DNA of 63,684 nucleotides, counting the filler. It is 3 parts of 3 records of this genome, joined end to end, with 100 filler letters (N's around TTAATTAATTAA, not from the genome) between each part and the next. Parts side by side here need not be neighbours in the genome. Positions count along the whole stretch, not along the records: positions 1 to 26,787 come from SRR20825019_1991; 2 more parts are not named here. One strand, 5' to 3'. This document shows, one piece after another, positions 2,577 through 49,561 of the stretch. The number at the start of each line of letters is the position of its first letter. Positions within the stretch are counted from its first letter, which is position 1. The notes beneath the pieces were generated by a model. That model searched no databases. It saw only the letters and a program-made list of their open reading frames with translations, and had not been told where the DNA came from. A program made the translations under genes and the position numbers.

Positions 2577-4988
2577 TCATTCCTCCGTCCCGACGGCTAC
2601 AGAAGACACCACTCCTGACTGGCCACTCTCAAATGTTTCTGAGGGAGGGCTGTTCACCCCGACCTCGTCCGAACCCCCGATAATAGATCCGCGCCCCACC
2701 GCAGGGATGGCTAGAGGAGCAGGTATGGCAAGTGGAGGGGCGGACGGGTGCTCCATAGCATCCACTGCCTCCTCACCGCCGGCTTGAGACCCGGCCTTCA
2801 TCTTGGCCAGATCAGCATTAGTCTTGGCGGCCTGCTCGGCACTCATCTGTTTCTTCATCTCCTCGGCAACTTTGTTATCTACGCCAATCTGTGGCCCCGC
2901 AGTGCTGTTGGCAAGCAGTTGATCCGCCAGTGTGCTGTTCTCCACAGACATCTTCCCCGCGTCAATAGGAGTCGGGTGCAGCGTGGATCCGTTCACCGGT
3001 ACTGTGCCATTGCTGTTGTCGACAACATTCATCTTATCCCATTCGTTCGTATCGTTGGTTGCGCCGGACAGCTGCGGGTTCGATAGAGACGTGTCGTTGA
3101 GACCTGCTTTGAGGTCACCCATCTCATCAGTCCACAGTGTGGAGTTCGCCCCATCCCCGGCAGCCCTGAGCTCCCACTCTGCTTGGTGTTTCTCATCCTC
3201 AGCCTTTTGTTGGTAGCTCTCAATGATTTGCTGCTCCTTCGCGATCTCCTCGCGGATCTCCGCCTGCCTCTGTTCATGCTCAGCCTTGCTCTGCTCATGC
3301 GCTTCCTTCATCTTGACATGGAACTCGGCGGCCTTGCTGTGCATGAGCGTCTGCAGATCAGGCATGCCCTGCTGCAGCTGTTCAAGCTCTTCAACACGTT
3401 TCTTGGCCTCCGCAAGCCGGTCCCTGACATCCAACATCTCCTGCCGGGCGGCATCCGCCATGGCAGAAATCTCCTGCGGCTCATTCTGCGCACGGCGTTC
3501 GTCCTTGCTGGGCGGATTCACCAGGCCCGAGGCCCACTTGACGTGATCTTCAGCCTGCATCTCGCTGTTCTCCTGATCTTGCTGCTCCTGCTTCGACACC
3601 CAGTCGCTCTTGGAGTTTGCCGCCTCGTTCTGGGCCTGCATTCTGGCGAAATCCTTCTCATCCATAGACATCTTCATCTTCATCTCCATTTGTGCGCGCT
3701 TGGCCTTCTGAGCCTCCAAGTCCGATTGGATCATATTCTGCTCTAGCTGCTTGATTTGACTTCGCATATTTTCTATCTTCTTCTCCGCCTCCTGCCGCTT
3801 AGACATGTCCTTCGACCGCAGTGCCTTCATCAGTTGCATCCTCAGCATCATGAGCTTATACTGCTCCTCAGGCATGGTCTTTCTGAGAGCCTTGAGCCTG
3901 TCCATTTCATCAGACAAGTTCTGCACAAAGTCCTCCTGCTTTGCCAGCGCAGCCCGAGCCCTTCCCACCGGGTCCGTGATATTAAACTTGTCACCGTCCA
4001 GAAGCATTCCGGCGATCAAGGGATCGGCAGTGGTGGTTACATTCGTGCCAAATGTACCGTTCACAGGGGTAGTACTGTTCCCTGCGTCGTCGTCGAGACT
4101 ATCACCGTCAGGCGGGGCCTCCGCATCATTTGGGTCCACCTTGCTCCCCAATTTTTCAAGATTTTTGTAGCCATCTGCAGGGTCGATAAGGCTCTTCTTC
4201 TCATTCACACACTGCTCGATGCAGGCTTGGGAAACTGTCCCATTCGCTGGGGCCGCCTTGTCCTCAGGCGCCGCCGCCGCATCGTCCTCCTGCGCCTTCT
4301 TCTTGCACTCCTCTTTGCACATTTCCCTCGCGTCCTCGATCGACTTCGGCTTGACCTTCTGCTCGCTCAGAGGAAGGTCTGCATCTGCATCCTCAGCCGC
4401 CTTCTCCTGTGCGGCCTTCACCTTCTCAGCCTGAGTTGCCTGGGCCTCCTTGACAGCCTCTTCCTGTGCGTTCGCAGGTGGAGCGGCATCGTCGTCATCT
4501 TCGGAGCCGTCAGGCGTCATGTCTCCCTGTCGAGTCTTAAGCTCGTCTTGAACAGCCTTAGCAACGGCGTCTTCGTTCACCCCAATGTTATTCCCAGAGT
4601 TCTTCCCCGCATCCGCGGCTTTCTTCGCAGCGTCACCGGCGCCGGCTTGGGCACCGCCGTCCTTCTTATCGCCGGCTCCATCCTTCTTGTCCCCCGCCGC
4701 TTCCTTTGCATCACCAGCAGGCTTTGCATCACCAACAGGCTTTGCATCGGCATTCGCACCAGCTGCCGCGGCAGGAGGATCGGGGTCGTCACCCGCAGCT
4801 TGATCGGCTGCTTTATCTTCTTCGGGCATAGAAACCGCGTTCTCTGTTCGTATCACACCGCTCGCTGCAACTTGGAGGGCGGCCACCTCCCCCCTCAGAA
4901 GGGAGGGGCGCGGCCTTACACTACCAGCCGGCAGGACAGTGGCCGTCACAAGCAGGACCACCAGCCACGCCTGTAAAGACGAAGCCAT
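2577..4988 (-). CDS. secreted acidic/coiled-coil hypothetical protein, 803 aa, intronless
   Basis: Long open frame; N-terminal hydrophobic signal (WLVVLLVTATVLPAGS); E/K/Q/M-rich helical core; many N-x-S/T sequons; CKEEC and CIEQC. Confidence 0.85.
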   Translation of the reverse strand: MASSLQAWLVVLLVTATVLPAGSVRPRPSLLRGEVAALQVAASGVIRTENAVSMPEEDKAADQAAGDDPDPPAAAAGANADAKPVGDAKPAGDAKEAAGDKKDGAGDKKDGGAQAGAGDAAKKAADAGKNSGNNIGVNEDAVAKAVQDELKTRQGDMTPDGSEDDDDAAPPANAQEEAVKEAQATQAEKVKAAQEKAAEDADADLPLSEQKVKPKSIEDAREMCKEECKKKAQEDDAAAAPEDKAAPANGTVSQACIEQCVNEKKSLIDPADGYKNLEKLGSKVDPNDAEAPPDGDSLDDDAGNSTTPVNGTFGTNVTTTADPLIAGMLLDGDKFNITDPVGRARAALAKQEDFVQNLSDEMDRLKALRKTMPEEQYKLMMLRMQLMKALRSKDMSKRQEAEKKIENMRSQIKQLEQNMIQSDLEAQKAKRAQMEMKMKMSMDEKDFARMQAQNEAANSKSDWVSKQEQQDQENSEMQAEDHVKWASGLVNPPSKDERRAQNEPQEISAMADAARQEMLDVRDRLAEAKKRVEELEQLQQGMPDLQTLMHSKAAEFHVKMKEAHEQSKAEHEQRQAEIREEIAKEQQIIESYQQKAEDEKHQAEWELRAAGDGANSTLWTDEMGDLKAGLNDTSLSNPQLSGATNDTNEWDKMNVVDNSNGTVPVNGSTLHPTPIDAGKMSVENSTLADQLLANSTAGPQIGVDNKVAEEMKKQMSAEQAAKTNADLAKMKAGSQAGGEEAVDAMEHPSAPPLAIPAPLAIPAVGRGSIIGGSDEVGVNSPPSETFESGQSGVVSSVAVGTEE

Positions 4989-5977
4989 GACGGCAGTCGA
5001 GACGGTTGCACCTGAAGGTTGTAGAAGTGCACAGTTCCATATGTATAGCGTGAAGGGGAAAGTTCAGTGCGGGGCTTGTGGGGCCTTTGGCCAAGATGGC
5101 TGCCCCTCTGGGCCGAGCTGTTGCCGTGTGGCGAGTCTGGCGACGGAGGACTAAGCCAAAAAGGGCGGTTCTATTGGCTGCAAAACTGCGCCGCGGCGGC
5201 TCCACCAAACGGGCGGACAGCGGCGCACTCTGGCCGGCGCACCATAGCAACGCGGCCCCGCTCCGGGCGGCCGGCTCGGCGCCGGTCACTGGCCGGGAGC
5301 TGCCGGCGCGGCCGCCGGGGACGACCAGCCCGGCTCGGCCGCGAGTCAGCGCGCCGCGGGGACTGCCGTGCGGCCGGGCCGCGGGCGGCGGGCGGCCCCC
5401 GGCAGCGGGCCGGCGGCGGGCTCGTCCGGCGCGGCGGGGCCCCGCCCACCGGCACTGAGCAAGCCGCCTGCCTACACATTCTGCTATTCTGCTTCAAATT
5501 GAACGAAATCTCAATATAACGAAAACGAGTAGGTGATTTTGTGAAGGGATTGCGTGCCAAAGTCACTGGGCCGTGCGCGACGGCTGACCAGTGGCGGCTC
5601 ACTGCGGTCGTCTGCCGGCGCGCGGCTGATGAGGCGTGCAGTGCCCGGGCCCCCCGCCGGCCGGCCCAGTGCCCCGGGCCCCCGTCTGATGAGACGGGCA
5701 TGGCCCAAGATCGGACTTTGTGCAGGCAGACCATCAAGTTTCGGGCTGGCAAAAGCCCGGCCAAACTCAGAGGAACACCGCAAAAGCCAGGCCATAGACA
5801 GTCCCGCCCTGTCTCCGGCTGCCCAACGGCGACCGCGCAAACCTCCAAGTCAACCCCAGGCGGAGGGTCCTGCGTCCGCACCCACGGCCCCCATTCCACC
5901 ATGCCCTCGACTGGGAGACCGAAACGCGCACACATAAATGTGACTACCGCGCGTGTAAGTTGTGTAGGTGTAGTGCG

Positions 5978-7174
5978 ATGCGGAGTGTTCTAGTTCTCCT
6001 GCTTGTCACGTATGTCGGGCTTGCCTTGAGCAAACCATTGGCGCTCCACAAAGGCGATTCTTCTGCCCTTATTTCGCGCCTCGGCGTCAGGGGGGATACT
6101 CTGCTCTCCCTCCGTGAAGACGCCGCGGAGTTCACGGTGGACCGTGACGTGACCATCACCGGTGACCTCAAGGTGGACGGGACTGTCAGCACCTCGATCC
6201 TCAAGAGCAGGCATGGCCCGGTGGTTGTTGACGATGATATGGAAGTCAGGGGCGCGGTGAAGGCTCAAGTTCTTTCTGTAACTGGTGATGCCTCCATAGC
6301 CGGCAGGCTCATCACGGATACCCTGCGTGCGCCCTCGCGTCTCCTGAAGATTGAGGGTAACGTTGATGTCAAGGGCACACTGTTCGTTCCTACGATCCAG
6401 TCTGAAGGGGGGGTGACGCACATCCAGGACAACCTGGAGGTGACCGGGGAGACGAGGGCGCGTAAGGTGGTGATATCAGGCGGTGAGCTGAACCTGAACG
6501 GCGACATGGCTGTCACTGGTGTTGTGAACGCAAACTACCTCAAGCCCCAGACGGGTCTTGTGACCGTCAAGAGCGCTATCAAGGTAGAGAAGGAGCTTCA
6601 AACACGGCTGATCCGTGCGGAGCGCGTGACAGTCGAGGGTGGGCTCGCGGTCGAGGGTACTCTTGAGACGATGGCTCTCCGCTCCGAAACAGGAATAGTC
6701 GATATCAACGGACTGCAGATCGTGAAACACAACAAGACGACCTTCTTTGAGGATAAGCACTCGCGCGCTGACCAGAAGTACATCGAGTTCCAGAAGCTGG
6801 AAATGGTGGTGGGAGACACGTCGATGATCAACTTGAAGACCACCGTGGTCAACCTGGGAGTGGACAAGGTGGAATTGTTCGCGGGGCACATGCTCTGTCC
6901 GGGCAAGCTCGACGTGGCCGTGCGGGCCTCAGAAGGGAGTTTGGCGGTGTTTACGATATACACGTCATCGTTGGTGGGCGGGGGCCATCAGTTCGGCTCC
7001 AATGGGAATGTGAAGAGCCATGACCATGGCCACTTCGATGTCTATGGTCTGGGGGACAACGTGGTGTACTCATTCAAGTTCTCCCGGACGGACTGCAGGC
7101 TGCGGCTGAATGCGAACAAGGTTACCAAGGGCGACACCACCATCTCTGTCATGCACACCGCATTCAACTTTTAG
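5978..7174 (+). CDS. secreted beta-helix-like repeat protein (bactofilin/tail-spike-like VxGxLxVxG repeats), intronless
   Basis: Signal MRSVLVLLLVTYVGLALS; ~8 repeats of mostly 24 aa, e.g. VTITGDLKVDGTVSTSILKSRHGP and LKIEGNVDVKGTLFVPTIQSEGGV. Confidence 0.85.
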   Translation: MRSVLVLLLVTYVGLALSKPLALHKGDSSALISRLGVRGDTLLSLREDAAEFTVDRDVTITGDLKVDGTVSTSILKSRHGPVVVDDDMEVRGAVKAQVLSVTGDASIAGRLITDTLRAPSRLLKIEGNVDVKGTLFVPTIQSEGGVTHIQDNLEVTGETRARKVVISGGELNLNGDMAVTGVVNANYLKPQTGLVTVKSAIKVEKELQTRLIRAERVTVEGGLAVEGTLETMALRSETGIVDINGLQIVKHNKTTFFEDKHSRADQKYIEFQKLEMVVGDTSMINLKTTVVNLGVDKVELFAGHMLCPGKLDVAVRASEGSLAVFTIYTSSLVGGGHQFGSNGNVKSHDHGHFDVYGLGDNVVYSFKFSRTDCRLRLNANKVTKGDTTISVMHTAFNF

Positions 7175-7325
7175 CCCCTCGCAGTCGCAATAGTGTATTT
7201 TAACATGTTTGTGCTCACGTGAGCCAGTGGGAGCAGTCCGGGCTGGCTCGGTTGCCAAGCCCGACCCGTCACACGGAGGGTCGGTCCACCACGCGAATAA
7301 AACTGCGCAGCAATATGTCGCTTGC

Positions 7326-9095
7326 TCAATCTCTGAATATTTCCTGCACGATGCGGCGATACGGGTTGCTAATGAGTGTGGCATCCTTGCGATAGCAGTA
7401 CATTAAGGCAGACATGGCCGCGGTGAACACCATCACATTTCCATATTGCAGATCCACCAGGCGGCCCTTACGCACGCCATTGCGCCACAAATTGTCGAGC
7501 GCGCGAGGGATGATATACAACGCAAGCTCCTGCCGCCTGGACTTCTGCTCCACAAATATGCCCAGGCCTGCAATGATGCCGCACAGCCAATACTTCGCTC
7601 TGAAGGGGCTCTTGCTGTACATGGCGTTGGTGGCGCAAATCGCTGCCTGATAAATGGAGACGAAACTCCCCAGGAAGGCGCACGACCTCATCGTGCCGAA
7701 TAGAACCTTGGATATGAGCGTGGTGGGCCTGTGATTCACGCCGTATCAGTCCTTAGTTCACCACCGAGACGAACGTTTGCTTACCGTTTGAATATTTGCA
7801 GCGGCTTAAACACAAGTTTGGGGAGGAGGTGGATTGTGCCGTACAACGGGAAGGACTTGCGGCACACGTCGGTAAACACGTTGGACCAGTGAATTGGGCC
7901 GCACCCACTTCCAGGGTGAAGGTACTCGCAGTTGACGGCGACAGTGCTGGCATCGGGAATGGGAATGTTGTGCTTGTTGCAATAGGGAGCAAGTTCACTG
8001 TCGGGGGTTCAGTGGCGCGCGGATCGACAACATACGACAGGATTACCCCAGGCGATGCGGCAGTCCATAGGAGTTGTCGCTCACAGCGTGAAGAATGCTC
8101 TCGTCAATGGGGCCTGGTGCACGGGCGTGTTAGTTACGGTGCCACACCACGAAGGTCACCTGGCTACATACCCATCTTGACAATGAACTTGTAGTACGAC
8201 TTGGGCAGAGTCTCAGGCGCCATCACATAGGAATACATGATCTGAGAAATCACCATGAGATGAGCGGTTTACAACCATCCTCCCTCCGCCCTTGTACCTG
8301 TGCGCTGCATATGGCAAATGCAATGAAATCGGAGTGCGGGATACGAGGAATGACGCCTTGACGGGTCATGTTTCGCAGCACCGCCTCCCACGCACGTGCA
8401 AAGATATACAAGGCCACTGTTGTGCGGTCGGAGGCCGGGGCGGCGATCAACGAGAGGCTTGACTACAGCGCAAATTGGTTAGTATTGCCGATGAGTCCAA
8501 AGGTCCGGGTGTTGCTCATACCACTGCCCCGGCCACCACAGGGTTGACGCTATCCTCCTTCTTCCGGATTTGACGCATCAGGCAGTCTGGCCACACCCAT
8601 ACAGTCAGCACGGCAGCGTGCTGCTTGCAAGCATGCAACTTACCCACTGACTTGAACGACCCACTAAGCAGTCCAATGAACAACCCTGTGCGGACCAGCT
8701 CAGGCTTGCTCAAGATAGCAAGGAGCTTGCGAGGTCTAGAGATTTGCAACGAGTCAGCGACATTCACCCACGCCGGACAAGCCATACTTTTTGTACAGGC
8801 GCTTCGCAACCAACCCGAAGAGCAAAACCAAAGCACCCCTCACGCAGTAACCCATGGCAAAGCCGCGGCCCATTCCCTTCAGCGCGTTAAGATAGCACGG
8901 GTGGGCATGCACACACAGCCCTTGGCGCAGCTTTGGGCCCGACGGCTGGTGTGTAGTTAGTCTCAACACTCTACACCGACTGCGCAAACTCACAGGCGCG
9001 GGCGGTTTCTCCCGACAGGCATCGTCGAAGGCCTCAGAGCACCGGCCTATGGAGGCGAGCTTAATAATATCCTTATCTGGAATCCTCTTCGCCAT
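7326..9095 (-). CDS. TMEM135: transmembrane protein 135 family, multi-exon
   Basis: Exons: CVHAHPCYLNALKGMGRGFAMGY, RTTVALYIFARAWE, AQIMYSYVMAPETLPKSYYKFI, RSCAFLGSFVSIY, EQKSRRQELALYIIPRAL; one intron has a TACTAAC branch site. Confidence 0.85.
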
Positions 9096-22849: not shown

Positions 22850-25288
22850 ATGGAACGCTCACCAGGCCTCTCGCCGGCAAAAGTGAAACAGATGGAGGAC
22901 GTCCTGGGGGCTGGTGTTGGAGCTCAGCTGGACCGCTCTCCGGGCCTCCGGGCACGGCCAGGTCGTGCCGCGGACGGCATTATGACGTCGTATGGAGGCG
23001 GGCTGGAGAGCGAGGCGGAGGTATTTGGGGCCCGACAAGTTGGGGATGGAAGCGACCCCGATGTGGACGACACTGCCTCCAAGGCGCGGGCCTCGCCGCC
23101 CCCCAGCCGCGCCCGCCTGTCCAGTCTAGTGATAGGTCATGATGACGAGGACCTGAGCCTAGTTCGGAGGAAGGAGCTATATGCGTGGCTCAGCTATGAG
23201 TGGGCCGCCGCGCCGTTCGTACGTTGGTGACTACAGTGTCACGGTGCCTGCTGACTCATTGTTATTCTAGGGAGCCTCGGTCCTGATGGCATATCTCGCC
23301 CCGTACGTCACAAACCTTGCCGAGGCGAGTGCCGACGATGACGGGATGGTGTACGTGCTGTTTCTGCGTAAGTGACCCCCCTCTAGTAGCGGACATGTCT
23401 CGGGGTATTGACTCGTCCCCAGCTGTCCATTACAAAAGCTACTACCAGTATTGCTCGAGCCTCTCCGTGGTGTGCCAGCTGGTGTTTTACATCTTGCTAT
23501 CGGGGGTGTCTGACTATGGCCACAACCGGAGGAATCTGTTGATCGCCTTCTCCTTTCTCTCTGCAATCGGCTGCCTGATGCTGTCGTGCGTGGTGACGGA
23601 GGTGTGGCAGGCCGCGGGCATCATTGCGATCGTGACGAATGTGCTGTACGGAAGCTCCTTCGTCATGTTCAATGCCTACCTGCCCGTCCTGGTCCGATCG
23701 CACCCGAGTATCGTTCGGGCGAGTACCCTGGGCTTCTCGTGTGGCGTTGATACCGATGATGACGGAGATGTGGAGGAGGGAAAGCTGGAGCAGGCGGCCA
23801 AGGCCCAGCGTACCTTGGCAGATGTGCCGGTATTTGTCGACGACGACTTTTTTGACGGCGATAAAGAAAAGGGAGCCGAGATTCCAGGGGCAGCGAAGGC
23901 ACCTGCTGGTCTCAGTGCCGTAGATGTGATAGCGGATCGGGGCGCCGAGATGCTGGGGACGACGGATGATGAACCCGCGGTGAATGTGCTGCACGTGGAT
24001 ATGACCCCGCCCGAGGGGGGGCGCCTTCAAGACGAGCCACCTACCGAAGATGAAGAAGGCAGCATTAGTGAGGATTCCGGCAATGACGGGGTTGGAAACA
24101 AGGCAGCGAAGGGCCCTAGGTCTAAGCGTGGTCGCACCAAGGTGACCACGGAGGATGTGGCGGTGGAGACGGGGAAAGGCGGCGTCAAGCGACGGCATCC
24201 CCTCGCGCCCAAAGAGTCTGTAGCACTGTGGGATGTGCAGCGCGAGATCGAGGCGAAGCTCTCGACGTATGCAGTCGTTGTGGCATTCTGTGGGGCATTC
24301 GTGATGCACATCATCACACTCTTCATCTTTCTGATTCTTGGCACGAACCCCATGCTCGCGTTCAGGGTCAATTTCATAATTGTCGCTGTTTGGTGGCTGC
24401 TTGGAATGCTGCCACTGATGTACCTCCGCCCACGCCCGGGCCCGCCGTCTCCGCCCCGTGCGTGGCTTCACGGTTTCACTCGTTCCCGGAAGACGCTTAG
24501 CCACTGGCGGCGCCTGCCCCAGACATTTCTATTCCTGGCAGCATTTTTCCTTTATTCCGATGGTTATACCACGGTCGCGAATGGGGCGTCAATGTTTGCA
24601 ACGGAGGAGGTGCTTATTTGTTCCAGGCGCAGCTTCATCATCTGACTTGTTTTTTTAGATCAAAATGCCTCTTATCTACCTCGCCATCCTTCAGTTGGTT
24701 GTTCAGTTAAGCGCGCTTGCCGGAAGTCTGATATTTCTCAAGCTGTCCAAGATTATTGTATGTTGACTATTACAAGCGGTCGCTTGACCCATTAACGTGT
24801 TCCGCTACAGGGTCCGCAGACAGTCGTTCTCATCAACATGGTCGGGCTCGGGTTCGCGCCAGCATATTCGGTCCTGGCACTGACCACCACATGGGAGTGC
24901 TTCGTTGTGGCCTTGATATATGCGTTCAACATAGGCAGCATCGTCTCATTCACCAGGGCCATATACTCCGCCATCATCCCCCCAGGGCGTGAGGCGGAGT
25001 TCTTCAGTTTCTACGCCATCACGGATCGTGGCACATCTTGGCTGGGTGAGAGAGGCGGGTGGTGGTTCATGGTGGCGGAGCGCTGACGAATCCGTAGGCC
25101 CGCTCGTGCTCGGGGTAGTGAATCAGGTGACAGGATCATTCCGCTGGGGCTTTTTCTCCATCATCATATTTTTTCTTGTGGGCGGGCCCCTCCTCTACAT
25201 GGTTGATATTCACAAGGCCAGAGAGCAGGCCCTGGCATTTGACAAGGAGCGACGGCCGGTCGGGAAATCCAAGGCCGAATCACAGTAA
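22850..25288 (+). CDS. ATG22: Atg22/UMF1-family MFS transporter, multi-exon
   Basis: KELYAWLSYEWA; SGVSDYGHNRR; FNAYLPVL; FLFLAAFFLYSDGYTTV; PPGREAEFFSFYAITDRGTSWLGPL. Confidence 0.88.
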
Positions 25289-26787: not shown

Positions 26788-26887
26788 NNNNNNNNNNNNN
26801 NNNNNNNNNNNNNNNNNNNNNNNNNNNNNNNTTAATTAATTAANNNNNNNNNNNNNNNNNNNNNNNNNNNNNNNNNNNNNNNNNNNN
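26788..26887. other. artificial contig spacer N44-TTAATTAATTAA-N44
   Basis: All-frame stop linker; composition switches from eukaryotic GC-rich to bacterial AT-rich. Confidence 0.98.
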
Positions 26888-29746
26888 CATTTCAGCGATA
26901 TAAGACAACTCATTAATATTAATCGTAACAATTTCCTTATTCTTATTGTTTCTGAGTATGTATAAGATTAAGTTCATGAATCCCAAAATACACCCAATTC
27001 CAAGCGGTGCATAACTTGCCGTAATAATTGCCACATGGATCATCAACCAGTATGACTTCAAGACAGGTTGTAATGGTGTTATGTCTGGATCCATCAGGTT
27101 CATTTCTGTAACAAAGATCATGAAGAACGCAAGTACTGCTGTACCGGCCAATAACGCCGCATTTTTCCGAGAAAAGAAGAAACCAAACGCCATTGTTGCC
27201 CATGCGATGAACACAACGGCTTCATATCCGTTACTCCATGGTGCTCTACCAGTAATGTATCCACGCATGAAAACACCAGCGCCGTGATATACAAACACCA
27301 CTAGCATCAGCATTGAGACAACCTGCGAAATTCGCTTGTAGATTGGGTGAGGCTTGACAAAAATTCTGACAAAGAAAAAGATCATCAAAACGAAGCCAAG
27401 AGAAAGGTACATCATCCATGAATTTTTGAAGATGTCCATTTTATTATAGCGGACTTCCATATTTACTCCACTTGCTGTTGGCACAAACGTCCCTCCCACT
27501 TCTCTCTGGTACGCTTTTATTTTGTTCAGAGTATTGATTGCTTTTGCATAATTTCCTGATTGCGCAGCATCATCTACTTCACTAAAATAACTCACCAACA
27601 TCATAGAAGTTGCCGAGTCCAACTGCATTCCTCCATATTCAATCGGGTCAAACCACGTATTGTTTGGCGCTCCCTTCACAGGAATAATTCGCATTCGCTT
27701 CCATGTAAAAACCTCCCATGCAACTTGATACTTCTCTACAAGCTTAATTAATTGCTTCTCATACTCTCCACGACGCGACTCGAGCATTCGGTGAGCTCTC
27801 TTGTACTCATTTGCAAAAATAAACTCACCTGTACTTCGCACGGTTAAATCATTTAATGAAACGTACGATTGATCATTCAGTTTTTCACGTAAACCTCCTT
27901 TTGAAGAAACATAAATGAGTTTCTCGTCCAACCAGTGATCTGGGTACATGTGCATACTTAACACCGTTTGAACTGCATTGTATCCATTGTATTTCTTCCC
28001 TCGATGAACTTTACGGAGAACTTCATCACACATCGTGTGCATCGGAATGATTCTTCCATGAAAATCTTGTACAAGGAGCGTAGCTAATTCATTCGAATGC
28101 GCTTCTGTAATTACTTCAAAACGCGTCGCAACTGGTGCAGCTTGATCGTGATTGTGTCCGTCGTGTGCATGATGTCCCTCTGGAAGTACTTCCTCAGAAG
28201 GTTGTTCCATTTCGGCATGATTGTGTCCATCGTGCTCGTTATGCTCGTGATTATCAGCAACCTGAGCATTTATACCAAACGAAAGAGCAAGTACTAAAAT
28301 GGAAAGTAATTTGTTTCGTTTCTCCGCCAATTTTTTCAATTTACTATTCAACTCTCTAAATCGTCCATTTCTAACGAATAATGAAAGTAGCATCCCTATC
28401 GCCATAATTAAATATCCAATATATGTCGTAAGCGTACCAACCGCATCATAATTTACGCTAAGAATTGTACCTGTTTCATCCGGGAAATAGCTTGATTGGA
28501 AAAAGCGATATCCTCGGTAATCAGTCACATTATTCATAAAAACTCTTCGTCTATCTTCGTATCCATTTTCGGGATCGATAATGGAAATTTCACTAGCGAA
28601 GGAAGATGCGCTTTCGGAGCCTGGGTATCTGTCCAATTGGAAATCATGACATTGCACAGAAAACGGCAATTGGATTCTCTTAGATCCGTATTCCATTTCG
28701 TACGTGAGACCATTCAATTCAAAAACTTCCTTTTCCGGAATCGCCTGAATCCCGCCGCGTAATGTTACCAATTTAGATTTATCCCCATCCGTTAACTTAA
28801 GCGTTAGGTAATCTGCTCCTTCGTTCTTCTTTTCCGCTGGTATGAGTTTTTTTCCTGCGTTGCGCTTTAAATCTTTAAAGACAAACTGAACTTCTCCAAC
28901 AGCGTAGAGTGTCGCTTTTTCAAGGGGAATAAGGGTATCGTTCGGGATTTTTCGGTACAGTGAATCGGCAATTTGTGGATTTTCTCTGTCCATTTTTTGC
29001 AGTTCCGACATTGGTAATGCCGTTGCTCCCATAGCTGAGCGCATCAGAATTTTTCCTCCTTCACGCTCAAACTGGATTCCAGGCATCGCGTCGGACTTCT
29101 CAAAAGAAACCGCGAGTTCATCCCAAAATATAAAACCACCTTCGGTCACATACTCAGACTTTCCAGCTCTGATAAACTCCAAAGCTGAAGTTTTAATGGA
29201 TTTATCGATCACGAGGCTGTCGATCATATTTTTCTGAAAATCTACATACTCCACCTCCACTTCGTTCTTATGTCCAGGAAAGGATATATCATGATCAAAA
29301 CCATTCCATGCTTTAAACTCAGACATGTAGACTTTTTCATCATAAACGTATTGCATTTTTCCATTATTCACTCTCATCCAAACGTGCGGTTCTGATGAAA
29401 ATATATAATTCACTTCTCGTCCTTCTGGAATTTGCATTGAACCTTCGAAGCTCACGAATCGTGTGATTCCGGCCCCGATTAAAATGACAATAAAGGATAT
29501 ATGGAAAAGAAATGTCGCCCATTTCTTCTCTTCAATCATTCGGAATTTTACAATATTGACAATCAGGTTGGTTCCTAAGTACACCAAAAGCAATTCAAAC
29601 CAAAGTGCATTGTAGATGTACAATTTAGCTGTTTGCGTATCATATACTGACTCCATTAATGTTGCTGTACCGATCGCAGCAAGAAAGAGAAACAATCCAA
29701 GAGTCATCATACTCATGGAGAAAAATCGGCGCACAAAATTGTCCAT
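26888..29746 (-). CDS. ccsA: system II cytochrome c biogenesis protein (ResB-CcsA fusion), 3'-truncated by contig end
   Basis: FLFHISFIVILIGAGITR, FMNNVTDYRGYRFFQSSY, APWSNGYE, PLQPVLKSYWLMIHV. Confidence 0.92.
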
Positions 29747-49461: not shown

Positions 49462-49561
49462 NNNNNNNNNNNNNNNNNNNNNNNNNNNNNNNNNNNNNNN
49501 NNNNNTTAATTAATTAANNNNNNNNNNNNNNNNNNNNNNNNNNNNNNNNNNNNNNNNNNNN
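49462..49561. other. artificial contig spacer N44-TTAATTAATTAA-N44
   Basis: Same linker as at 26788. Confidence 0.98.

Follow-up and report, generated by a model that had tools for sequence, protein, structure and literature searches.

We analyzed a stretch of 63,684 nucleotides (the window), in which three contigs are placed end to end, with N runs around a six-frame stop linker, TTAATTAATTAA, at positions 26788-26887 and 49462-49561; features must not be read across these linkers. The first contig (SRR20825019_1991; positions 1-26787, 26.8 kb, guanine plus cytosine (GC) content of about 60%) carries on its plus strand an open reading frame (ORF) at 5978..7174, consisting of 398 codons and a TAG stop codon (7172-7174). 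In the product of this ORF, which is the subject of this report, a hydrophobic, signal-like segment is followed by nine repeat units and then by a C-terminal part that is rich in beta-structure and free of repeats.

The ATG at 5978 is the first ATG in a stop-to-stop frame of 458 codons (5798-7171). First-order Markov simulations of the 26.8-kb contig produced no frame of this length in 30 trials, the largest having 409 codons. We also compared the ORF with public contigs, which cover the stretch in two runs of one sample. Two of these match it with no differences and no gaps, namely X1 record 2 (5966-7127) and X2 record 5 (6649-7603). Because these contigs are colinear with the genomic sequence, the ORF has no introns, as a first-pass annotation of the window had stated. 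Another contig of the first run, X1 record 3, covers 7098-7729 and then continues with letters that exactly match 7786-7815; the 56 nt that it skips read GTAAG...CAG on the minus strand, that is, a GT...AG intron (7729-7785) of a convergent TMEM135/Tim17-like gene. Given that the intron of the adjoining gene is spliced out in this record, the run contains RNA-derived sequence. We suggest that the ORF is a real, transcribed and intronless nuclear gene of a GC-rich microbial eukaryote. At position 5966, X1 record 2 is preceded by a loose end of 22 letters, which we take to be the end of the template-switch oligonucleotide used in cDNA synthesis. This hints at an mRNA 5' end 12 nt before the ATG, with 5966..5977 on the plus strand as a probable 5' untranslated leader, and contigs of this kind cannot prove where an RNA starts or ends. 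About 27-32 nt upstream of 5966 there is a TATA-like ATAAAT (5934-5939); the region 5014-5965 is without contig cover and carries no evidential weight.

The first contig is eukaryotic nuclear DNA, as is evident from eukaryote-only neighbors such as Utp11 (E 5.3e-31) and from split genes. The eukaryotic origin proposed at first pass is thus borne out by exons of Utp11, WD40, CCCH zinc-finger and PQ-loop genes and by a split ATG22-like gene on the same contig. The assembly as a whole is a mixture of one eukaryote and bacteria, and the other two contigs of the window (26888-63684; about 37% GC) hold densely packed bacterial genes. Taken together with the near absence of relatives and the phage-fiber-like repeats described below, this mixture could suggest that the ORF encodes no host protein and is instead a chance frame, an assembly artefact or a contaminating bacterial, phage or viral gene. 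However, the gene lies inside the 26.8-kb contig with intron-containing, eukaryote-specific genes on either side, and the nearest N or linker is more than 19 kb away. Its GC content at codon positions 1/2/3 (0.595/0.387/0.729) is of coding type and close to that of flanking genes (0.598/0.46/0.679 in the ATG22-like neighbor), and the difference-free contig cover comes from the run that holds the spliced sequence of the adjacent gene. We regard a non-host origin as highly improbable. The codon composition matches that of the host contig, and no relative is close enough for a tree of the prokaryotic or viral ancestry that had been proposed as a possibility at first pass. A tblastn search of the window found no paralogue of the 398-residue protein, the only match being to itself.

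The first 19 residues (5978..6034) resemble a signal peptide in their hydrophobicity: MRS is followed by a hydrophobic run of 14 residues, VLVLLLVTYVGLAL, and then by S-K-P, and the segment MRSVLVLLLVTYVGLALS would be cleaved off before the next residue, K. Residues 3-17 are the most hydrophobic 15-mer of the protein (Kyte-Doolittle value 2.55), and a run of 14 residues is short for a membrane anchor. These features suggest that the protein enters the secretory pathway by way of a cleavable signal peptide, in agreement with the first-pass annotation. The protein has no membrane span, no glycosylphosphatidylinositol-like tail, no enzyme family and no nameable motif. Plastid targeting was considered and rejected, as nothing downstream of the signal peptide points to a plastid. 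Residues 20-51 (6035..6130) form a short N-terminal segment with a half-repeat-like stretch, ISRLGVRGDTLLSL, and lie outside the part of the protein that was modeled as a trimer (residues 99-398).

The repeat stalk occupies residues 52-264 (6131..6769). A single extra hexad (residues 52-57) is followed by nine units, encoded at 6149-6769, that comprise residues 58-81, 82-98, 99-122, 123-146, 147-170, 171-194, 195-216, 217-240 and 241-264. Six of these are exactly 24 residues long, the second has 17 residues, the seventh has 22, and the last is degenerate. The first-pass annotation had listed about eight units, mostly of 24 residues, at 6149-6720; the six units that it quoted are all present verbatim in the product and the prevailing length holds, whereas the array has nine units and is slightly longer. 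Each unit is made up of four hexads, namely A (h-x-h-x-G-D/N, where h is hydrophobic), B (h-x-V-x-G-x), C (h-x-small-x-x-h) and a polar D (x-x-x-x-G-x). Hexads A and B have Gly at position 5 and hydrophobic residues at positions 1 and 3, and hexad D is absent from the 17-residue unit and shortened in the 22-residue unit. The BLOSUM62 self-score at lag 24 had a z of 7.4 for residues 52-264 and of 7.2 for residues 99-194, and none of 1000 residue shuffles scored as well at any lag from 1 to 60; the z values at lags 6 and 18 were 3.1 and 2.5. At lags 24, 6 and 18, the autocorrelation of hydrophobicity was 0.34, 0.20 and 0.19, respectively. No periodicity was found in residues 265-398, for which 872 of 1000 shuffles were equally good. 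As first described, beta-helix-type repeats are followed by a separate beta-rich part.

Next, we modeled three copies of residues 99-398 with ESMFold2 without an alignment. The interaction prediction scores from aligned errors (ipSAE) were 0.78, 0.82 and 0.78, and the best of three controls reached 0.00. The partners had a pLDDT (predicted local distance difference test) of at least 76 (76-81), and at least 95% of contacts were common to the runs. The model has about 1300 contacts, with nearly every residue of 99-237 at the interface in all three copies, and the confident three-chain interface consists of residues 99-237 and 241-249. In the 25 pairs with the lowest error, residue i of one copy is paired with approximately residue i+6 of the next (for example, 123-129, 129-135 and 147-153). 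From this chain-to-chain offset of about six, we read the model as a triple helix whose chains are intertwined, each face having six residues, and not as three solenoids side by side.

According to this model, the repeat region (about 190 residues) would not be a lone solenoid; three chains would wind round one axis. The predicted stalk would then belong to the narrow, hexapeptide type of intertwined triple beta-helix that forms the shafts of phage tail fibers and tailspikes and the stalk of the transcription factor MYRF. One hexad would make up one face of one layer, with A, B and partly C pointing two side chains, one residue apart, into a triangular core, and after every six residues the chain would shift to the next face and rise by one layer. 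Because each hexad would be one face and one layer step, the 24-residue repeat of four hexads need not equal one winding, which would be a turn of 18 residues. When the hexads were checked against this scheme, A and B fitted the pattern of two inward residues in most units C has one hydrophobic and one small residue, and D is polar, so that about three quarters of the layers fit. With 4.8 Å for each layer, a stalk of residues 99-237 would have a length of about 11 nm and one of residues 52-245 a length of about 15 nm, and three beta-sandwich-like C-terminal domains would occupy its tip. Based on the confident three-copy model, the A/B hexad pattern and the fiber-type relatives, we favor the view that the protein is a secreted trimeric fiber with a binding head, to which we assign a probability of roughly 0.5. 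We place this view ahead of a single-chain solenoid, which in turn precedes a bactofilin and, last, an artefact.

Several points weigh against a trimeric fiber. The trimer comes from one alignment-free prediction, made with three copies, and a pass in ESMFold2 may reflect memory of solved look-alikes and thus shows likeness, not binding. Of 30 proteins solved as one-chain pairs, 21 attained the mark for a pass, as against none of 23 solved as single chains; these counts were calibrated on two copies and are only roughly valid for three. For eukaryotic proteins, 17 of 29 passed, as did one of the seven without an older solved relative and none of 30 single chains. The C-terminal domain lies outside the confident interface, no intramolecular chaperone domain was found by Pfam in the whole protein or in C-terminal segments, secretion is read from inspection of the N-terminal sequence, and the function of a fiber is argued by analogy. 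In hexad D, the positions that would face the core are polar (K/R/Q and E/Q/S). This hexad is also missing or short in two units, which would make it look like the variable loop of a single-chain coil of 18+6 residues. In addition, the strongest period is 24 and not 6 (z = 7.4 and 3.1, respectively), as expected of stacked coils of one chain.

If these last points are decisive, then the protein would be a single-chain right-handed parallel beta-helix, in which the 24-residue unit is one coil with strands A, B and C and a polar loop D. Such a protein would be secreted as a monomer, measure about 4 nm in length and end in a beta-sandwich at its C-terminus; beta-helix adhesins, glycan-acting enzymes or ice-binding proteins would be comparable. 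The dominant period of 24 agrees with this structure, and so does the dispensable D hexad, given that loops of solenoid coils are often absent or shortened; the protein also passes the Pfam Bactofilin model, which represents a single-chain, three-sided helix. AlphaFold2 (AF2) without an alignment gave a monomer that looks like a right-handed beta-helix of one chain. Its best structural match was phi29 gp12 (3gq7_A; Z 8.3, root-mean-square deviation (rmsd) 5.6, 298 residues aligned), followed by PfbA (3zpp_A; Z 8.2) and a Det7-like tailspike (6f7k_A; Z 8.1). However, a best Z of 7 to 8 is typical of models without a true match, so that these values lie within the background range, and the pLDDT values were low, at 42.1 (whole protein) and 41.6 (residues 241-398). 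Because of these low values, we did not use the AF2 models as evidence for the fold; the AlphaFold monomer proposed as a check at first pass was thus obtained and is solenoid-like, but of low confidence. The three-copy model, in contrast, is far more confident and has intertwined chains, and the relatives that share the repeats include a Peptidase_S74 protein (P0004). Known adhesins and tailspikes with single-chain beta-helices (phi29 gp12, 3gq7; PfbA, 3zpp; Candida Awp A-domains, 7o9p) are likewise secreted or found on surfaces and have about 22-25 residues in each coil, and they were the best matches of the low-confidence monomer, at a background Z of 7.0 to 8.3. However, we found no sequence similarity to them, and no catalytic or ligand motifs were identified in the protein. 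We consider the single-chain solenoid to be possible, though somewhat doubtful.

We also searched for relatives of the protein. Its exact sequence is absent from a collection of 15 billion proteins, and a word-index search of 5.8 billion clusters, which covered lengths of 218-697 residues only, gave no relative at E <= 1e-3. HMMER found five weak matches (E 2.8e-5 to 4.3e-4) among 1.84 billion representatives, all of which are confined to residues 22-192, so that none covers the C-terminal domain. These are metagenomic proteins of 312-3852 residues of bactofilin, tail-fiber or Peptidase_S74 type. Four of the five match Pfam Bactofilin at E <= 0.01, three of these above 27.9 bits, and one of the five has the source label 'CcmA (bactofilin family)'. 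P0004 also contains Peptidase_S74, and P0005 matches phage tail-fiber and structural PHROGs with E values down to 1.7e-22. The query itself showed weak matches to phrog_529 (tail fiber; E 1.5e-3), phrog_36281 (E 0.016) and phrog_4549 (E 0.036), and tblastn against 50,697 phage records returned one non-significant match, to a jumbo-phage 'long tail fiber proximal subunit' (E 0.7). A trimeric fiber or spike of phage type had been named as an alternative in the first-pass annotation, and both the three-copy ipSAE of 0.78 (0.00 in the controls) and the weak match to phrog_529 speak for it.

The closest small relative is P0006, a metagenomic protein of 312 residues encoded on a 135.7-kb contig (BLASTP, 29% identity over 135 residues, pairwise E 2e-12). 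It has the same layout without a signal peptide: about 130 residues of similar repeats, including 26-residue units (...VCGTLSVDTLDSKTPLGPITVTPDFN...), are followed by an unrelated beta-rich C-terminal part. Scans with back-translated patterns gave 168 matches in metagenome contigs, seven in viral contigs and 95 in contigs of prokaryote genomes, none of which was confirmed, and scans of viral contigs seeded with P0006 and with P0005 found no relative. No PDB chain was matched by phmmer at E <= 10, solved bactofilins included, and when a 24-column profile built from the nine units was run against the PDB, it yielded two chance matches only (cocaine esterase, E 1.8). NCBIfam gave no family for the whole protein or for the C-terminal part, and the latter has no Pfam family either. 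From these sequence comparisons, no family membership can be assigned to the protein.

Peptidase_S74 is a chaperone of triple-beta-helix fibers, and some triple helices are without such a domain. In our protein, Peptidase_S74 (PF13884) had no match at E <= 10 in the whole sequence or in residues 225-311, 241-398 or 265-398. We considered whether a remnant of this domain could be present, since BLAST pairs residues 180-310 with the junction between repeats and chaperone in P0004 (E 0.002). This candidate was rejected: Pfam does not confirm it, and M232 and E237 stand at the positions of the Ser and Lys of P0004, so that the dyad would be lost.

The match to Pfam Bactofilin (PF04519) has an E value of 6.1e-7 and a score of 30.0 bits, which passes the gathering cut-off of 27.9 bits by about 2 bits, and it aligns residues 52-145 with profile positions 7-90 of 98 in two stretches. 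It raises the possibility that the protein is a genuine bactofilin homologue, acquired from prokaryotes, that polymerizes end to end in the secretory lumen or outside the cell. Windings of bactofilins comprise about 18 residues, as compared with the period of 24 found here. According to Deng et al. (bioRxiv 10.1101/617639), bactofilins are cytoplasmic, carry an N-terminal membrane-targeting motif and form head-to-head and tail-to-tail polymers; in eukaryotes they were reported only from stramenopiles and ascomycetes, and PiBac of Phytophthora forms filaments. In archaeal HalB, a Sec signal peptide accompanies a bactofilin domain that lies outside the cell (PMC11459167), and our protein would be the eukaryotic counterpart of that domain. 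The example of HalB also shows that the cytoplasmic location given at first pass for described bactofilins does not hold throughout.

However, the Pfam score is marginal, the period differs, and no solved bactofilin was retrieved from the PDB. None of the five matches from the 1.84 billion representatives is a short canonical bactofilin, and Deng et al. dismissed other eukaryotic matches as repetitive sequences. A domain of 134 residues at one end would also be expected to block one of the two polymerization faces. When the protein is compared with PiBac, HalB and other members of PF04519, the passing of the Pfam model and a beta-helical repeat with Gly-rich corners are shared; the period of 24, the signal-like N-terminus in place of a membrane-targeting tail, the 134-residue domain after the repeats and the predicted trimeric intertwining in place of end-to-end stacking are not. 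The bactofilin likeness suggested at first pass is seen in the profile match and is missing among canonical relatives, and the period differs. Judging from its sequence, the protein does not behave as a canonical bactofilin, and we consider a genuine bactofilin homologue to be improbable. An 18-residue core with a 6-residue loop would also allow the 24-residue unit to be read as part of a three-sided helix.

Phage fibers, tailspikes and cell-puncturing spikes are known to have triple beta-helices as their very stable shafts. The predicted intertwined homotrimer resembles such shafts, for example those of T4 gp12 and gp34 and the stalk of the endosialidase endoNF, in that a face comprises about six residues, a hexad supplies two residues to the core and the turns have Gly, Asn or Asp (PMC5537660, PMC8326128). 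In gp34 and gp12, the triple helix measures 2 nm across and has an aliphatic core and turns of Gly, Ser or Asn (PMC5537660). The order of a rod followed by a globular C-terminal part and the weak links to tail-fiber PHROGs are further likenesses. In contrast to phage shafts, our protein is encoded in eukaryotic nuclear DNA, starts with a signal-peptide-like segment and has neither a virion-attachment domain nor Peptidase_S74. It also has a regular 24-residue super-repeat, whereas the gp34 helix is described as having no clear sequence motif (PMC5537660), and there is no significant sequence homology to any solved fiber.

In eukaryotes, a triple beta-helix is already known from MYRF, a membrane transcription factor (PMC8326128). 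The solved MYRF stalk is built of hexapeptide repeats with two core residues 'one residue apart' and six residues per layer (PMC8326128), and MYRF and MrfA of Dictyostelium have a phage-derived stalk with an ICA domain (PMC8326128, PMC3742443). Our protein would share with them a eukaryotic, hexapeptide-based beta-helix of phage type, the trimer being predicted in our case. However, MYRF is a transcription factor of the endoplasmic reticulum (ER) membrane, and its stalk is short, only partly intertwined and dependent on the self-cleaving ICA domain. The protein analyzed here has a stalk of about 32 hexads, is probably secretory and lacks ICA, a DNA-binding domain and a membrane span.

The C-terminal beta-rich domain, residues 265-398 (6770..7171), has no repeats and no detectable relatives. 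It contains two cysteines (307 and 373), the isoelectric point (pI) of residues 246-398 is 8.56, and the one N-x-T sequon (N252) lies just upstream. Low-confidence models of this part show about eight consecutive beta-hairpins. Structure comparison gave only tied, generic matches to jelly rolls or beta-sandwiches (Z <= 7.4), and Foldseek gave no match at E <= 0.001. Heads of C1q type were among the tied matches of the model with a pLDDT of 41.6 (5hba_A, Z 6.8, rmsd 3.5, 98 residues aligned; another at Z 6.4). Language-model features of residues 255-398 were nearest to phage clusters with 30-43% PF00386 members at a score of 0.80, the highest obtained and one that a third of shuffled proteins also reach, so that these clusters serve as leads only. 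A stalk that bears a beta-sandwich head of about 135 residues would recall the trimeric C1q/TNF-like heads of phage C1q-like proteins and complement C1q. However, there is no match to Pfam C1q (PF00386) even at E <= 10, and the head is not part of the confident interface. A bacterial outer-membrane barrel or autotransporter, prompted by the C-terminal ...F-N-F and the short hairpins, was rejected on the grounds of the eukaryotic contig, strands that are too short and the lack of a family match.

If the protein is a secreted trimeric fiber, then its likeliest role, by analogy with stalk-plus-head trimers such as phage fibers and C1q-type proteins, would be that of an extracellular, rigid spacer that displays three binding heads. 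It might act as an adhesin, a lectin, an opsonin-like or prey-capture factor, or a surface or coat fiber; the component of an extrusome, scale or hair proposed at first pass is a further hypothesis. We also tentatively consider a more specific scenario, which we hold to be possible, though somewhat doubtful, in which a free-living microbial eukaryote took a trimeric receptor-binding fiber of virus or phage type into its own secretome. In this scenario, the long intertwined shaft would carry three new beta-sandwich heads, the ER would take the place of the viral chaperone, and the fiber might capture bacterial prey or form a surface fiber.

In the literature, we found no description of a secreted eukaryotic triple-beta-helix fiber or of a secreted eukaryotic bactofilin, in a search whose coverage leaves out most subscription journals. 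As far as our searches went, what would be new here is a secreted eukaryotic protein with a long regular stalk and no chaperone domain, the fold types themselves being already known. Within the same limits, a trimeric fiber would be the first secreted cellular triple-beta-helix fiber in a eukaryote, which would add a new cellular role to a fold that has so far been linked with viruses, injection machines and MYRF. It would imply that eukaryotic cells are able to fold and export such fibers, would offer a compact 24-residue repeat for the study or engineering of triple-helix folding, and would point to a new binding head in an unsampled protist lineage. A single-chain solenoid, on the other hand, would be another secreted beta-solenoid without relatives and of modest interest, as well as a warning that near-cut-off matches to Pfam Bactofilin in eukaryotes are not bactofilins.

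The ORF has a divergent neighbor on the minus strand at 2577-4988, a gene that is intronless over 803 codons. Its product, in which Glu, Lys and Ala abound, is acidic (pI 4.62), starts with a signal-like segment, MASSLQAWLVVLLVTATVLPAGS, and contains 13 N-x-S/T sequons and four Cys; no Pfam or NCBIfam family was found for it. A public contig on this gene ends at 5013 with the reverse complement of the oligonucleotide-like loose end, which hints that the mRNA of this gene starts 25 nt ahead of the ATG. The start codons of the two genes are separated by 989 bp, and co-regulation is possible. On the other side, about 150 nt separate the end of the last coding exon of the TMEM135-like gene from the stop codon of the ORF. 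The 3' ends of these two genes may overlap, and the contig on 6649-7603 spans both. The skipped intron of 56 nt is direct evidence of very short spliceosomal introns in this organism.

Elsewhere on the first contig, the ATG22-like vacuolar effluxer gene has at least three exons on the plus strand in different frames (23287-24642, 24796-25083 and 24935-25285), which cover positions 67-317, 364-437 and 436-481 of the Pfam ATG22 profile, and TMEM135/Tim17-like exons accompany those of the other eukaryotic genes. The two bacterial contigs carry Bacteroidota-like genes for a ResB/CcsA fusion (26840-29746, minus strand), AsmA, a GldG-like ABC auxiliary protein (ABC_transp_aux), DUF5916 with CBM9 and a Na/Ala symporter. 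They also encode a cystathionine-beta-synthase-like protein with PALP and CBS domains and proteins with CarboxypepD_reg and CarbopepD_reg_2 domains.

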